Positions 22,194-27,693 of a DNA stretch of 63,871 nt are shown here, in pieces. The position numbers and the translations under genes were made by a program. Each line of letters begins with the position of its first letter. Position 1 is the first letter of the stretch. Below the pieces are notes generated by a model. That model was not told where the DNA came from. It did not search any database and saw nothing but the letters and a program-made list of their open reading frames with translations. The DNA is from an archaeon (GTDB lineage: Archaea > Asgardarchaeota > Thorarchaeia > Thorarchaeales > Thorarchaeaceae): assembly GCA_024276825.1 (NCBI GenBank), contig JAJRWI010000025.1, positions 1-63,871 on the forward strand. The letters are read 5' to 3'.

Positions 22194-23579
22194 GTGGCAG
22201 AGATGAAAGGAAGACTATTCGGAACCACGGGTGTCAGAAAGGTGTATGGAAGAGAGTTTGACCTTGATATGGCACTCGATCTTGGAAAAGCCTTTGGTAC
22301 ATATCTGAATGAGGGCACGGTGCTACTTGCCAGAGATGTAAGGATCACCGGCAAGATGGTGGAGGACACATTTGCGGCAGGACTGATGTCCACAGGGATA
22401 TCGGTTGTGAGAGCGGGAGTCATTCCCACTCCAACGCTTGCATTCATGACAATGCATGGCCGATACAAGGCAGGAGTTATGATAACAGCCTCACATAATC
22501 CGCCAGAGTATACAGGGATAAAATTCTGGACTGCAAGCAGCATGGGATACACACCCCATGAGGAGAGGGAAATTGAGAAGATCTATCAATCACGAGAGTT
22601 CAAGCGGGCAACATGGGACAGGCTTGGTTCTGACTCAAGTATAGATAATGCGGTCAGTGAACATATCAGAGAGATCTTGGCAAGGACCAAGGTTGAAACA
22701 ATAAAATCCAAGGAGTTCAAGGTTGTCGTCGACCCGGGAAATGGCGCGGCCTGTGTTTTGACACCATATCTTGTCAGAGAACTTGGATGCAAGGTCATCA
22801 CGATCAATGGGCAACTGGACGGACACTTTCCAGGCAGAAAGTCCGAGCCTGATAAGGAGTCATTGGTTGATCTGATCAGAGTCGTCAGGGACACTGGTGC
22901 GGACCTTGGAGTCGCTCATGATGGTGATTCTGACAGGGTTGTGTTTGTGACTGAAAACGGTGAAGTGATTCGGAGTGACAGGACTATTGCATTAATATCA
23001 ATGGACATGTTGAAACGGCAGCCGGGAGGTGTCATAGTCACTACTGTTGACAGTTCAAAAGTGCTTGATGAAATAGTGGAGAAGCATGGCGGCAAAGTCA
23101 TAAGGACACCTGTCGGAGACATTCAGGTAGCGTTCAAGATAAGGGAGAATAACGCAATATTTGGTGGCGAGGCCTGTGGAGTCTTCATATTCCCCGATTT
23201 TCATCTGGCCCCTGAGCCATTTCTGGCAACCTGTAAGATTCTTGAACTCATGGCGAAGACTGGTAGAGGCTTTAGAGACCTAATGAGAGAGATTCCTATC
23301 TATCCACTCAAGAAGACAAAGATTCAGTGTGATAATGAGAGAAAGCAGGAGGTCATGGAAACACTTCAGGAGAAGCTACCAGAAGCCATAGGTGATGTTG
23401 TGGAGATCATCACTGTGGATGGGCTTGGCGTGTCGCTGAAAAATGGATGGCTCCTCGTGCGACCCTCTGGAACCGAACCAGTCATCAGAATCACATGTGA
23501 GGCAAGGAGTGAGCAAGACGTAGAACATATAATAGAGAGAGCAAAGGAGATAGTTGAAGGAACAATCGCAACAAGATAG
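22194..23579 (+). CDS. glmM: Phosphoglucosamine/phosphomanno-mutase
   Basis: LFGTTGVR, ITASHNP, HDGDSDR, GGE, VRPSGTEP; substrate specificity not resolvable. Confidence 0.85.
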   Translation: MAEMKGRLFGTTGVRKVYGREFDLDMALDLGKAFGTYLNEGTVLLARDVRITGKMVEDTFAAGLMSTGISVVRAGVIPTPTLAFMTMHGRYKAGVMITASHNPPEYTGIKFWTASSMGYTPHEEREIEKIYQSREFKRATWDRLGSDSSIDNAVSEHIREILARTKVETIKSKEFKVVVDPGNGAACVLTPYLVRELGCKVITINGQLDGHFPGRKSEPDKESLVDLIRVVRDTGADLGVAHDGDSDRVVFVTENGEVIRSDRTIALISMDMLKRQPGGVIVTTVDSSKVLDEIVEKHGGKVIRTPVGDIQVAFKIRENNAIFGGEACGVFIFPDFHLAPEPFLATCKILELMAKTGRGFRDLMREIPIYPLKKTKIQCDNERKQEVMETLQEKLPEAIGDVVEIITVDGLGVSLKNGWLLVRPSGTEPVIRITCEARSEQDVEHIIERAKEIVEGTIATR

Positions 23580-23630
23580 TTTTATAGCACAACAAATAGA
23601 AAAAGAGAGTTGTATATTGGAGTAAGAGAA

Positions 23631-24038
23631 ATGCCCGACGAAGACGAACTAGGAATAATGGAAGAATTTGAGTGGGCATTAAAGGATCCCACTGAAGAAA
23701 AGATACGACAACTAGGTGAAGTAGTGAGTACCATAACCACTAAACTAGTGGCTGCCATAAGCGAGATTCAAGAGAACATTTACAATATCAAAAATGAAGT
23801 TAGTGAGTTGAGTTCCAAAGTGGATCAACTGGAGGGCAAGATCTCACGACTGTCTACTGCGGGTCCTGCAACGGCGGCCCCATCTGCAGCATCTGCCGCT
23901 GCTGATACACCAATAGCCGCTGCTCCAAAGCCAAAGCCCGCAGCAGCCCCACCCCCAAGTTCAGGAGGAGGCCTAATGGGAGAACTAAAGGCTGCTCTTG
24001 CGGCCAGAAGAAGAAAGGCAGGCGGAGAGGACGGTTAG
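23631..24038 (+). CDS. Coiled-coil + Pro/Ala linker + VASP-FAB/WH2-like C-terminal motif protein
   Basis: Heptad region ISEIQENIYNIKNEVSELSSKVDQLEGKISRL; APKPKPAAAPPP; GGGLMGELKAALAARRRKA. Confidence 0.7.
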   Translation: MPDEDELGIMEEFEWALKDPTEEKIRQLGEVVSTITTKLVAAISEIQENIYNIKNEVSELSSKVDQLEGKISRLSTAGPATAAPSAASAAADTPIAAAPKPKPAAAPPPSSGGGLMGELKAALAARRRKAGGEDG

Positions 24039-24700
24039 AAAAGCGTCATGACATTGTTCTTTGGATAGAACGGTCCCGAGTGTTCTGGTAGGGTCACTGA
24101 GAATGCTTCTGCGCGTTCGCATGCAGACTGAACGCCCCGTAGAGCAGTTCTTGTGTCGTATAGTCTTAGGTAGTAATCATTGGCTTTGCTTATCTGCGAC
24201 TCGTGTTCTTTTAATGCGGCCACGGCACTCTTGTAAAATGGCGTTATGTTGACAAACACATGTGGACGAGAAATGGGCGTGTTGATCTCCATATGGAGCA
24301 CACGTTCCACTCGATGAGCATTGTCAAAGAGGGTTGTATGGGACGCCCACTCGATAGCGCGTCTCACAATCTCCAATGTCGCCCTATGATTATGATTGTA
24401 GTCCTCCTCTGAATGAGTGATTATCAGGAAGGGTCTTGACTTCAGGATTGCACCTATGACCTCATTGACAAGGTCCATGCCAATGTCAAAATCATCACGT
24501 TCGCTCAGGAACAGAGAGCGTACACCCAGACGCGAACAGGCATTCTGAAGTTCGTTGTTCCTTGTGTCATTGCCTGTAAGGCACATCACATCAACAGGAA
24601 TGTTGTGAGTAGTATGTGCCAGAATGGTGCCGCCAGCACCGATGCATTCATCATCAGGGTGAGCACTAATTACCAGAATTGACTTGGTTTCATCGGGCAT
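24035..24700 (-). CDS. bshB: PIG-L family deacetylase, BshB-like
   Basis: SAHPDDE..GAGGTI, DYNHNH, HESQ, AEAF; divergent from bshA-bshC. Confidence 0.75.
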   Translation of the reverse strand: MPDETKSILVISAHPDDECIGAGGTILAHTTHNIPVDVMCLTGNDTRNNELQNACSRLGVRSLFLSERDDFDIGMDLVNEVIGAILKSRPFLIITHSEEDYNHNHRATLEIVRRAIEWASHTTLFDNAHRVERVLHMEINTPISRPHVFVNITPFYKSAVAALKEHESQISKANDYYLRLYDTRTALRGVQSACERAEAFSVTLPEHSGPFYPKNNVMTLF

Positions 24701-24801
24701 GTTGCCACAATTGTCACCAATACTAATCAACCATTCTAATTGACCAGACCATTTTCCTTATAGGACAGCATCATGCATAACTGATTACTCTGGTGAACCA
24801 C

Positions 24802-25968
24802 ATGAACATAGGAGTCAATCTCTATCCATCTGTGGGAGGCTCTGGATATCTGGCCACAAGGCTTGGTCAACATCTCGCCCGTCGTGGACACCATATCCAT
24901 TTCATCACCTATGACAGACCATTCTCGCTGATGTGGGAGTCAACACAGGGAGTCTATGTTGATCTTGTTGACAGGTTCGATTACCCATTGTTCAAGAATA
25001 TTGGTCCACCCTATGGTATGGCTCTCACCTCTAAGATAGTGAAAGTGGCAAAGTCATCCAAACTTGACTTGATTCATTCTCATTACGCTATACCTCATGC
25101 AATGTCTGCATACATGGCAAGAGAGATCATTGGGATACCCTATGTACTCACACTGCATGGTTCAGATGTTCATACCCTGGGCATGGACCCCGCCTATCGG
25201 CCAGTAGTTGAGCATGTAATAGAAAATGCCGATGCTGTGACATCTGTTTCGGAGTTTCTCAAGAGGAAGGCAATTGAGGAAATGGGAATAGAGAGGGACA
25301 TCAAGGTCATTCCAAATTTCATTGATGTGAAGAGGTTCACTCACCTCAATGGAATAAGGCTTCTTGTTGAGAGCGGGTGTGTCTCACTACGACGAAATGA
25401 GGAACTCAAGGAGATTGACCCTGATGAGAAGATCTTACTTCATGCCTCCAATTTCAGAAGAGTGAAGAGAGTAGTCGAACTTGTGGAGATGATGAGACCC
25501 ATTGTAGACCATCTACCAAAGACAAGACTGATAATCGCTGGCGATGGCCCCACGAGAATCGAGGTTGAACGCAAGATAGATGAACTCGACTTGTGTAACA
25601 ATGTCCACCTCTTAGGAATTAAGAGCAACATGCTTGAAATCATGTGCACTGCTGATGTGTTCCTTCTCAATTCCACACTTGAGGGGATGCCCCTTGTGCT
25701 CCTTGAGGCAATGTCATGTAAACTCCCGGTTGTGACCACTCCTGCGGGAGGCATCCCTGAGCTGGTCCGACCCGGAATTGATGGAATAGTGACAAAGGGG
25801 TTTGAGCAGGACGAGTACATTCAGAAAGTCTTGGAGATATTGACTGATGACAAGTTGCGTCAGAAGTATGCCCAGGCGGGACGCAAGAGGGTTGAAGAGA
25901 GTTTTTCAGCAGATAAGATTGTCAAACAATATGAACAGTTGTTTATTGAGGTCATTGCAGATCGGTAG
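24802..25968 (+). CDS. bshA: N-acetyl-alpha-D-glucosaminyl L-malate synthase (GT4)
   Basis: YPSVGGSG..AT.LG, HIHFIT, LIHSHYAIPHA, TLHGSDV, HASNFRRVKRV: BshA-specific signatures. Confidence 0.88.
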   Translation: MNIGVNLYPSVGGSGYLATRLGQHLARRGHHIHFITYDRPFSLMWESTQGVYVDLVDRFDYPLFKNIGPPYGMALTSKIVKVAKSSKLDLIHSHYAIPHAMSAYMAREIIGIPYVLTLHGSDVHTLGMDPAYRPVVEHVIENADAVTSVSEFLKRKAIEEMGIERDIKVIPNFIDVKRFTHLNGIRLLVESGCVSLRRNEELKEIDPDEKILLHASNFRRVKRVVELVEMMRPIVDHLPKTRLIIAGDGPTRIEVERKIDELDLCNNVHLLGIKSNMLEIMCTADVFLLNSTLEGMPLVLLEAMSCKLPVVTTPAGGIPELVRPGIDGIVTKGFEQDEYIQKVLEILTDDKLRQKYAQAGRKRVEESFSADKIVKQYEQLFIEVIADR

Positions 25969-25977
25969 GAGGCCTTA

Positions 25978-27693
25978 TTGGTGAAGAGTATTGGGACTGT
26001 CTACGAAGACTACATCTGGCGTGGCAAGAATGAGGACCTAGCAGCGAGCCTTTATAACAAGCCGCCAGAAACATTGGGCTCTGTGTTTAATCGAGTTAAG
26101 GGGATTATGAGGGCATATGAGAAGACAGAGTGGTTTACATCTGAGAGATATGCCATCCTTGAGAGAGCATTGACTGATTGGAACCGCCAGATTGGATGTC
26201 TGACCAGTGCAGTCCGTGAGAACATATCCAGACTGCAAGATGGAGCAATTGAGGTCGCTCATCAGAGTATTGTACTAGGAGGGCCCTGCTATATTCTTAA
26301 CAAGGCTGCAACTGCAAATATTCTGTTTCATATTGGAGTTGAGAGAGGAGTTCCACAGACACCCTACTATTGTATTGCAGATTATGACATTATACAGGCA
26401 GAACTGATTAACATTCGCACGCCATTAATGGGGCATGAGGGAAATCTGATCAGCATTCCTGTTCCAGAGGGTTACAAGAACTCACCAGTGAGCGCAGTCC
26501 CACTTCCAGAGAAGAGTTGGCTTGATGAGGTGGAGGAGAGTCTGCGATCAAACTACCATCCGCTCTTCAAAGCAATTGAGGGCAGCGTAAGGCGCGTGTT
26601 CGAAGAACGACTTGATGGATCGCTCACTGTGATTCGATGGGCGTTTACAAACTCAAAATTCATCGGCGATTTTGCACAGCGAATCATAGGCTGGCTCGTC
26701 AATATCCAAGGGGGGCTGGGAATTCCAATTGTGCCAGCCTCGAATAAGAAGATCAGAACCCTACTCGTGATGGGTCTCGAGTTCTTGCTCCAAGTGGACA
26801 ACAGGGAGAAGTTCCTGCGAGTACAAGGCAAGATAACTCAACTCATTAAGGACAAAGGGTATCGGCCCAGTTTTTCTGCGCGACCAGATGATTATGTCCC
26901 GTTCTTCTACGAATGCCAGAATGAGGGATGTAACAAGAGCAGGACCGAGTTGAAGTATGATATGGTCAATGATAAAGCGGTCCTCAGAGGGAGATGTCTT
27001 TCTTGTGGAGAGAAGATTGAAATCGAGGTTTCTGCAAAGGATCCAGATCTCACCAGCATTGCAGAACATATCTCGCCACGTGTGGACTCAAGACAGTTTG
27101 CTGTCAATACAATGATACCTGTCACTGTTCATGTGGGCGGACCTGGCGAGGGAGCATACTATGCCCAGGTGATCCCTATTGCCAGAGAGCTTGGAACTCC
27201 ATTCCCAGACTTCGTCAGATATCCGCGCGTGTATTTCAACACTCCCTGGAATGAGGCCCTTGCGAAGAGTCTGAATGATAGGGGATACCCTGTTCTTCAT
27301 TCCCCAGAGATGTTCAAGATCATTGGGAAGAGCAACCGGTATAGGAAGAAGAAACGCTATGATGAGATGAACGAGAAAATCGGGGAGTTCGAGGAACTCT
27401 TGAAGAGGAAACACAGGGAGATTAGCAGGGCAATTGAAGAACTCAAGACCAAGATTGCTGAGAGCTCAAGAGAGAAGCAACAGGAACTGCGAAGAGACTT
27501 GCTTGATATGGAGCGCTATCTGAGCTGGGTATTCGGTCAGTATGCACCTGAGAAAATGGGGCAAGAGACCGCGTGGTCATGGATTGAGTGGGCAATAAAC
27601 GCGGGCTTGTCTGATCTCTTTGGACCATACAAAAGAGCATATGTGGCATCCATGAAGAATGGTGCCACATTGTTTGTAAACTTTTCAACCTAG
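25978..27693 (+). CDS. bshC: Bacillithiol cysteine-adding enzyme
   Basis: HQSIVLGGPCYILNK, DYD, GGPGEGAYYAQ, C-terminal coiled coil; immediately after bshA. Confidence 0.78.
   Translation: MVKSIGTVYEDYIWRGKNEDLAASLYNKPPETLGSVFNRVKGIMRAYEKTEWFTSERYAILERALTDWNRQIGCLTSAVRENISRLQDGAIEVAHQSIVLGGPCYILNKAATANILFHIGVERGVPQTPYYCIADYDIIQAELINIRTPLMGHEGNLISIPVPEGYKNSPVSAVPLPEKSWLDEVEESLRSNYHPLFKAIEGSVRRVFEERLDGSLTVIRWAFTNSKFIGDFAQRIIGWLVNIQGGLGIPIVPASNKKIRTLLVMGLEFLLQVDNREKFLRVQGKITQLIKDKGYRPSFSARPDDYVPFFYECQNEGCNKSRTELKYDMVNDKAVLRGRCLSCGEKIEIEVSAKDPDLTSIAEHISPRVDSRQFAVNTMIPVTVHVGGPGEGAYYAQVIPIARELGTPFPDFVRYPRVYFNTPWNEALAKSLNDRGYPVLHSPEMFKIIGKSNRYRKKKRYDEMNEKIGEFEELLKRKHREISRAIEELKTKIAESSREKQQELRRDLLDMERYLSWVFGQYAPEKMGQETAWSWIEWAINAGLSDLFGPYKRAYVASMKNGATLFVNFST

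Follow-up and report, generated by a model that had tools for sequence, protein, structure and literature searches.

Asgard archaea put out dynamic, actin-dependent protrusions and crawl, and in the literature to 2026 their actin regulation is described mainly through gelsolins and profilins, with no filament polymerase, bundler or nucleation factor named. Does a short gene in a Thorarchaeaceae archaeon encode a regulator of a further kind? The gene lies at positions 23631-24038 (+) of the window, by which we mean the whole 63,871-nucleotide stretch of contig JAJRWI010000025.1 (assembly GCA_024276825.1) that was analysed. An earlier note, made from the DNA letters of the window, had read the product as a coiled-coil protein with an Ena/VASP-like actin-binding motif and as a candidate undescribed actin regulator. 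The reading that we find best supported is that the gene belongs to a family that is a portable partner-docking module, free in most Asgard lineages and fused to GTPases in Lokiarchaeia-type (Loki-type) genomes. Actin is the most likely single docking partner, a candidate that we put forward tentatively and that could well prove wrong.

The gene and its product in Asgard genomes

The gene comprises 135 codons (23631-24035), beginning with an ATG at 23631 and followed by a TAG stop codon at 24036-24038. Its product is a small, soluble-looking protein of 135 amino acids with an acidic N-terminus (MPDEDELGIMEEFEW), a long helix, an Ala/Pro linker that includes PKPKPAAAPPP, and the tail GLMGELKAALAARRRKA, with the tail motif SSGGGLMGELKAALAARRRKA. 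All of the strings quoted in the earlier note are present in the open reading frame (ORF), and its observation is confirmed: the gene encodes a genuine conserved protein. Fifty-one bases separate it from the preceding phosphoglucomutase/phosphomannomutase gene, whose stop is at 23579. Read from the sequence, this upstream region (23581-23630, +) holds a TATA-like TTTATA at 23581-23586 and a GGAG at 23619-23622, 8 nucleotides 5' of the ATG. A TTG at 23610 could in principle serve as the start but probably does not, since orthologues begin at the ATG position and both TTTATA and GGAG precede the ATG. The window's own genome (2.9 Mb, 98% complete) carries one copy of the gene, and the tail motif was unique in that genome in a tail-profile scan. 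A 203-residue protein encoded elsewhere in the genome (C33:19639-20250, +) also combines a coiled coil with an Ala/Pro/Gln linker and was weakly matched by the family profile (E 1.7e-5). The tail motif is absent from this protein, and its similarity to the family is probably one of composition only.

We modelled the protein with AlphaFold2 from a 37-sequence family alignment. The model places helices at residues 4-18 and 22-75 (predicted local distance difference test score, pLDDT, ~95), a disordered stretch with no secondary structure at residues 76-113 (pLDDT 47-66), and a terminal helix at residues 114-131 (pLDDT ~81). Comparison of 26 sequences from Thorarchaeia (Thor) showed that conservation is concentrated in two parts, an N-terminal block and the tail, while stalk and linker drift. 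The N-terminal block spans 23655-23750 (+; residues 9-40, IMEEFEWALKDPTEEKIRQLGEVV...KL), and F13, W15, A16, L17, D19, P20, L28 and G29 are invariant within it. The long helix, a predicted coiled-coil stalk of 54 residues (22-75), is encoded at 23694-23855 (+) and varies in sequence among orthologues. The disordered Ala/Pro spacer (23856-23969, +; residues 76-113) varies in both length and sequence and ends in PKPKPAAAPPPSSGGG. Last comes the C-terminal amphipathic polybasic helix, a putative docking helix, at 23970-24023 (+; residues 114-131, GLMGELKAALAARRRKAG), delimited by the model together with its invariant residues. The motif that the earlier note had singled out here is kept among orthologues: M116, E118, K120, L123, A125, R126 and R127 are invariant in the same 26 sequences.

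Searches for known relatives returned little. A Pfam scan of the protein at E<=1, read over the best 25 of 34 families, and searches against PDB sequences gave coiled-coil noise only, and an ESM Atlas fold search turned up nothing beyond unnamed Asgard clusters and helical look-alikes of a generic kind. A word-indexed search, by comparison, yielded 285 homologues at E<=0.01, nearly all of them 125-165 amino acids long, those with names coming from Thorarchaeota metagenome-assembled genomes. When 1.84 billion representative proteins were scanned with phmmer, the 19 hits were family members plus a few coiled-coil or low-complexity artefacts. The spread through actin-less prokaryotes that the earlier note had contemplated was not seen, as that scan contained no family member from outside the Asgard archaea, and within the databases searched the family appears to be Asgard-restricted. 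Nor did we find any description of it in the literature on Asgard WH2, VASP, polyproline/profilin or Arf/coiled-coil proteins, in agreement with the label 'undescribed'.

In six-frame scans, other Asgard genomes each gave a single orthologue that shared this architecture. The sole tandem duplication seen was a pair of family members on a short contig of another Asgard genome (G124:C202:85-396 and 602-925). To chart the distribution we ran a pan-Asgard profile on 121 Asgard genomes at least 90% complete. Matches were found in 33 of the 34 genomes of the window's own genome family (f1), in 32 of 33 of f22 and 4 of 5 of f16, and in every genome searched of f29 (4/4), f15 (3/3), f21 (2/2), f30 (2/2), f2, f14 and f28 (1/1 each). 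There was no match in f8 (0/7), f11 (0/11), f13 (0/3), f10 (0/2), f26 (0/2) or three singletons.

Sequence features of the module differ between lineages. Loki-type orthologues have polyproline or GPP repeats, such as APPPPPG, SPPPPPG and GGPPGGPP, in place of the Ala/Pro linker; the orthologue in a closed 6.04-Mb genome, G138, has an APPPPPG...SPPPPPG...APPPPG linker. Their tail reads NPvSLRGaIMgELKeLFaKRKK, in some cases with an acidic run at its end. Thor tails have one additional Ala ahead of the Arg run and contain zero aromatic residues. The E-L-K and the next L of the tail are nearly invariant phylum-wide.

GTPase fusions and an internal copy of the tail motif

The pan-Asgard profile and six-frame scans also revealed the module in larger proteins. 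In Loki-type genomes, proteins of 383-475 amino acids consist of an N-terminal extension, an Arf/Rag-like GTPase domain (Pfam Arf 75-87 bits; Gtr1_RagA 71-92 bits) and then the whole module. The segment directly after the GTPase domain (...LTDPTvKKIEGLGkILEqTLNAVIKL...) can be aligned to the free protein's N-terminal block; after it come a long helix and a linker containing Pro, and the proteins end with a vRqqVLsELKnLFdKKK helix. Examples are found at L090:1213-2481 (+), L091:761-2026 (-), L092:2205-3584 (-), L094:2000-3223 (-), L103:1480-2628 (-) and L133:169-1593 (+). A second type of GTPase fusion is also present. Full-length fusions were recorded in 32/33 genomes of one Loki-type family and 2/2 of a second, in 0/34 of the Thor family and in none of the other families sampled. 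The module-GTPase fusions appear to be new: we found no description of them in the literature on Asgard Arf/coiled-coil proteins.

A tail-profile scan of five genomes added a further architecture. A 697-residue protein with no Pfam domain (L132:679-2769, +) has long Pro-rich stretches, and one Pro-rich run precedes a tail motif (TLRGGMTEELKTLFSK) that here lies inside the chain; near its own C-terminus lies a hydrophobic stretch resembling a membrane span. With the Thor profile, the sole longer form was a 472-residue fusion of phosphomannomutase with the family protein, most likely a read-through or miscalled gene pair reflecting conserved synteny. Judged by their sequences, these proteins show coiled coil, spacer and helix to be one portable module, and the Pro-rich stretch with its helix appears to be a reused unit.

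If the module is portable, what does it dock to? The fusions themselves suggest one answer, a small-GTPase pathway adaptor. On this view an Arf/Rag-like GTPase would have given up its C-terminal region as a separate protein, the free family member, which would work with such a GTPase. The coil would dimerise, and the partner of the tail would be conserved but other than actin: an effector or regulator, for example, or a different protein of the cytoskeleton or of membrane remodelling. By Rosetta-stone logic the near-universal fusions of the two Loki-type families tie the free protein to such GTPases. In the fusions the complete module, EEF..FL / DPT..K..LG block through tail, trails the GTPase domain, and the strongly kept polar tail residues E118 and K120 fit a specific protein partner. 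Their absence from the Thor family and from the other sampled families argues the other way, as does the lack of a GTPase gene among conserved neighbours. An AlphaFold2 model of one fusion was unconfident in the module region (pLDDT <50) and uninformative on packing, and it displayed no contact between module and GTPase. The adaptor is, moreover, compatible with actin as the final target. We regard it as possible but doubtful. ARL13B-type proteins offer a parallel: there an Arf-like GTPase is joined to a coiled coil and a C-terminal region rich in proline. Compared by architecture alone, the Loki-type fusions follow this order too, with Arf-like GTPase, coiled coil and Pro-rich stretch in succession, and differ in finishing in a conserved ELK..LF..KKK helix.

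A second answer is that the helix binds lipid. FtsA and MinD carry terminal membrane-targeting helices, and FtsZ has a conserved C-terminal peptide behind a disordered linker. The Asgard tail shares with these the short terminal helix behind a flexible spacer, which in those proteins serves targeting, and it could in the same way anchor a coiled-coil scaffold, or fusion GTPases without a lipid anchor, to an acidic membrane. The terminal position behind a linker that AlphaFold2 predicts to be disordered accords with this, and the tail helix has a hydrophobic moment of 0.26-0.47, a net charge of +1 to +4 and a HeliQuest-type factor of 0.7-1.57, in the possible-to-likely range for lipid binding. 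C-terminal prenylation signals are reportedly missing from Asgard small GTPases (PMC10933270), so a helical anchor on the fusions would make sense. The numbers themselves do not discriminate, however, because the F-actin-binding (FAB) motif of VASP scores 0.98, within the range of the tails. Conservation is also far tighter than amphipathicity needs, extending to an invariant Glu at the polar/non-polar boundary that is retained in the fusions, and Thor tails offer no aromatic residues. Unlike the helices of FtsA and MinD, the Asgard tail is kept residue by residue, acidic residue included, and can be internal, which makes it more like the FtsZ peptide than like a lipid anchor. Since the internal copy stands in a protein with its own membrane-span-like stretch, and since the invariant E118 lies at the edge of the hydrophobic face, a protein-binding peptide would fit better than a lipid anchor, and we consider membrane targeting rather unlikely.

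Resemblance to actin-binding helices

We then compared the tail with the motif that the earlier note had given for VASP. In human VASP the G-actin-binding (GAB) motif occupies residues 223-239, the FAB motif residues 259-278 (a 20-mer) and the tetramerising coil residues 343-380 (PMC10340426); the motif in the note agrees with this FAB and was correct. We scored the human FAB 20-mer, ungapped with BLOSUM62, against all six-frame ORFs of at least 80 amino acids in the window's own genome (1.38 M residues). The tail was the top match with a score of 53, against 37 for the next, unrelated sequence and a background mean of -19 (standard deviation 9). With a one-residue gap allowed, the tail scored 61 and the next match 37. 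In the opposite direction, we added the human FAB to the genome's 12,380 ORFs and searched them with three tail profiles. The Thor-only profile ranked it second after the protein itself (19.0 bits, E 5e-4; next ORF 6.9 bits), the pan-Asgard profile also ranked it second (12.6 bits, E 0.056), and the Loki-type-only profile ranked it about 15th (5.4 bits, E 7.8). The likeness to FAB thus appears real at the scale of this genome, while a match this short would lack significance in a database of billions of proteins. A simpler pattern is shared more widely: hydrophobic residues spaced at 0, 1, 4, 7 and 8 and then a basic cluster are found phylum-wide, in the GTPase fusions and in human VASP FAB alike. 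An ESCRT-III MIM1 reading of the tail was rejected on inspection, as the MIM1 consensus, (D/E)xxLxxRLxxL(K/R), misfits the spacing of the conserved residues.

The likeness extends to the arrangement of parts. Ena/VASP and the Asgard protein each have a coil (oligomerising in VASP, putatively so in the Asgard protein), a Pro-rich stretch and a short amphipathic helix ending in RRRK, and a single gap suffices to align the Thor tail to FAB. They differ in that the coil of the family is long and N-terminal, whereas that of VASP is short, tetramerising and C-terminal; the window protein has no EVH1, GAB or VASP_tetra, and its linker is Ala/Pro rather than GPPPPP. In MIM/ABBA an N-terminal dimeric helical domain is followed by a Pro-rich middle and a C-terminal WH2, and BimA is a trimeric bacterial mimic of Ena/VASP. 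These MIM/ABBA-type WH2 proteins and BimA have the same order of parts as the Asgard family, in which a helical domain predicted to be oligomeric leads through a Pro-rich spacer to a terminal helix resembling those that bind actin. Loki-type tails (R-x-A-I-M-x-E-L-K) also come near the start of WH2 helices, R-x-A-L-L-x-x-I. In Loki-type orthologues XPPPPP runs stand immediately N-terminal to the helix, and XPPPPP runs beside WH2-type motifs are the arrangement found in eukaryotic actin assembly factors. At the level of the family these runs overturn the remark in the earlier note that GPPPPP is absent, which holds for the window protein, where the linker ends in AAAPPP. That the family was seen only in Asgard archaea, and that the window's own genome has a gene for a genuine actin (435 bits against Pfam Actin), would likewise count in favour of actin.

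On this basis we can outline how the protein might work. The conserved N-terminal helix would lead into the long coiled-coil stalk, through which, we infer, the protein forms oligomers, and the extended disordered Pro/Ala spacer would link the stalk to the conserved amphipathic polybasic helix, which would act as the docking peptide. On actin this helix may lie as the WH2 and VASP-FAB helices do, with its hydrophobic face (L/M-M..L..LL) in the cleft and its RRRK cluster towards the acidic surface of the filament. Several tails per coiled-coil oligomer could then bundle or tether filaments or help them elongate. The protein would be Ena/VASP-like in design only and not by descent.

A number of results weigh against actin as the partner. 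Much of what makes the Thor tail resemble FAB, including the Gly run and LAARRRKA, looks largely like a trait of the Thor lineage and not of the family, as the fall from 19.0 to 12.6 bits with the pan-Asgard profile and to 5.4 bits with the Loki-type profile indicates. VASP GAB scored ~0 bits with all three tail profiles and no second motif was found in the protein. Pfam WH2 (PF02205), WH1/EVH1 and VASP_tetra gave no match in the window protein (E<=1) or in eight Loki-type orthologues (E<=10), with the proviso that HMMER filters may drop very weak WH2 matches. A search of 177,635 PDB sequences with the tail profile returned no WH2 or VASP chain. The LKK[TV] core of WH2 is absent as well: the helix is followed by AARRRK in Thor and KRKK in Loki-type tails, with no Leu-basic-basic-Thr/Val. 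Compared with WH2 proteins, then, the family lacks LKK[TV], a PF02205 match at E<=10 and any WH2 peptide among its PDB matches. The caveat in the earlier note about EVH1 and a separate GAB was sound, since neither was found and 135 amino acids are too few for an EVH1. With EVH1, GAB, VASP_tetra, a WH2 profile and LKK[TV] all missing, what remains is a resemblance of design; the label 'Ena/VASP-like' is apt as a description of that design and fails as a statement of family membership, given the negative Ena/VASP and WH2 tests.

Distribution and context point the same way. Actin is present in the genome families f8 and f10, where the family gene was not found, so the gene is widespread but, at this sensitivity, not coextensive with actin. 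No cytoskeletal or actin-related gene was seen beside it in Thor or Loki-type loci. Heimdall and Thor profilins bind VASP polyproline weakly (millimolar), and Loki and Odin profilins are reported not to bind it (PMC8410842). The Asgard gelsolins provide a last comparison: their WH2-like linkers (LRRV, LKHV, LVDV) are the only short actin-binding motifs so far described in Asgard archaea, and WH2-like motifs have been described there only inside gelsolins (PMC9433394). Those linkers sit between gelsolin domains and retain a four-residue LKKT-type core, and the window protein has neither.

Published proteomics of Lokiarchaeum ossiferum bears on both expression and binding. G138 (6,035,313 bp) was aligned to the L. 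ossiferum locus tags through landmarks in the supplement of bioRxiv 10.1101/2025.11.30.690169. Two 2DGel genes at 3.04 and 4.78 Mb of G138 agree with tags 02589 and 04136. In G138 the gene for the family product (16.14 kDa) immediately follows that for an Elf1-type zinc-ribbon protein, whose mass we calculate as 24.03 kDa, and GNAMCCOK_02218, at 24.01 kDa, has the index expected for the Elf1-type protein. By position and by the mass of its neighbour, the G138 family member is probably GNAMCCOK_02219. This protein was quantified in 16 of 16 proteome columns with a mean log2 intensity of 18.5, a signal from a probable orthologue that supports expression of the family.

Within the Lokiactin co-immunoprecipitation rows that span a log2 ratio of +10 to about -0.96, gelsolins and an Arf are listed (bioRxiv 10.1101/2025.11.30.690169). 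GNAMCCOK_02219 is not among these rows. Its neighbour GNAMCCOK_02218 is (log2 ratio 1.36, adjusted p 0.034), although less abundant in the proteome than GNAMCCOK_02219. Because weak or transient binders are often lost in co-immunoprecipitations, because the tag was assigned indirectly and because the rows cover part of the data, we count this absence as mild evidence against stable actin binding. The co-purified 'Arf' of 38.1 kDa corresponds to a 38.12-kDa ORF at the expected position in G138 (GNAMCCOK_04696, matched by mass to L111). We considered it as a carrier of the module and rejected it, as its sequence lacks the module, a point that also tells against the GTPase adaptor.

Could the resemblance to FAB simply be due to chance? 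The tail might be a basic helix that serves a different function, for instance in binding nucleic acid or in the oligomer's self-association, and that looks like FAB through its low-complexity composition of a Gly run, Ala and an Arg run. The motif is indeed short and compositionally biased, its FAB score comes mostly from Thor-specific residues, no profile method ties it to any actin-binding family, and the Lokiactin rows just described hold no sign of it. Yet the tail tops the genome-wide FAB search by a clear margin, the hydrophobic spacing and basic cluster are kept throughout the phylum and in paralogous fusions, and the recurrent pairing with a Pro-rich stretch in several architectures suggests a functional unit. 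We think chance resemblance quite unlikely.

Weighing these points, we retain the portable docking module with actin as its tentative partner. A bolder extension is that the Pro-rich stretch and the ELK..L[FL]..basic helix make up an Asgard-wide actin-assembly module, akin to the proline-rich-domain-WH2 and FAB units of eukaryotic elongation and nucleation factors, that would be a free coiled-coil oligomer in most Asgard lineages and in Lokiarchaeia-type genomes would also be wired to Arf/Rag-like GTPases as a prokaryotic, GTPase-switched actin polymerase or tether predating formins, WASP and Ena/VASP; we judge this unlikely. The family matters under either outcome. Small, expressed and near-ubiquitous, it joins a stalk predicted to oligomerise to a Pro-rich spacer and a helix of WH2/FAB-like type, and it is the kind of part that is missing from Asgard actin regulation. 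If the partner is not actin, the family still defines a conserved docking peptide attached to Arf/Rag-like GTPases, which bears on how the many Asgard small GTPases without lipid anchors are targeted.

Gene neighbourhoods

Thor and Loki-type loci have zero neighbours in common. In Loki-type genomes the family gene is accompanied by genes for an Elf1-type protein, a 206-residue helical protein, a pelota/eRF1-like protein, a radical-SAM protein, a GNAT protein and a hexapeptide transferase. The Elf1-type gene is beside or near the family gene in most of these loci. The one directly 5' of the L. ossiferum member (L041:4193-4810, +) encodes 206 amino acids with a PF05129 match of 60 bits, a helical acidic extension and the end ...LGDLGFLEF; its mass and position identify it with GNAMCCOK_02218, which was enriched with Lokiactin. 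An unannotated all-helical protein of 206 amino acids (L044:4248-4865, +; L043:4256-4873, -; and relatives) adjoins the family gene in two arrangements: it lies upstream in one Loki-type family, and in two genomes of a different family it lies downstream. A functional connection may be behind this.

In Thor loci the family gene lies between a phosphohexomutase gene and a bshB/bshA/bshC-like cluster. In the window, Pfam assigns these genes as phosphoglucomutase/phosphomannomutase (22194-23579, +) on one side and, on the other, a PIG-L deacetylase (24035-24730, -), a GT4 glycosyltransferase (24793-25968, +) and a BshC-like protein (25978-27693, +). By these Pfam assignments, the genes around the family gene at 22194-27693 resemble a bacillithiol-type thiol pathway in an archaeon.

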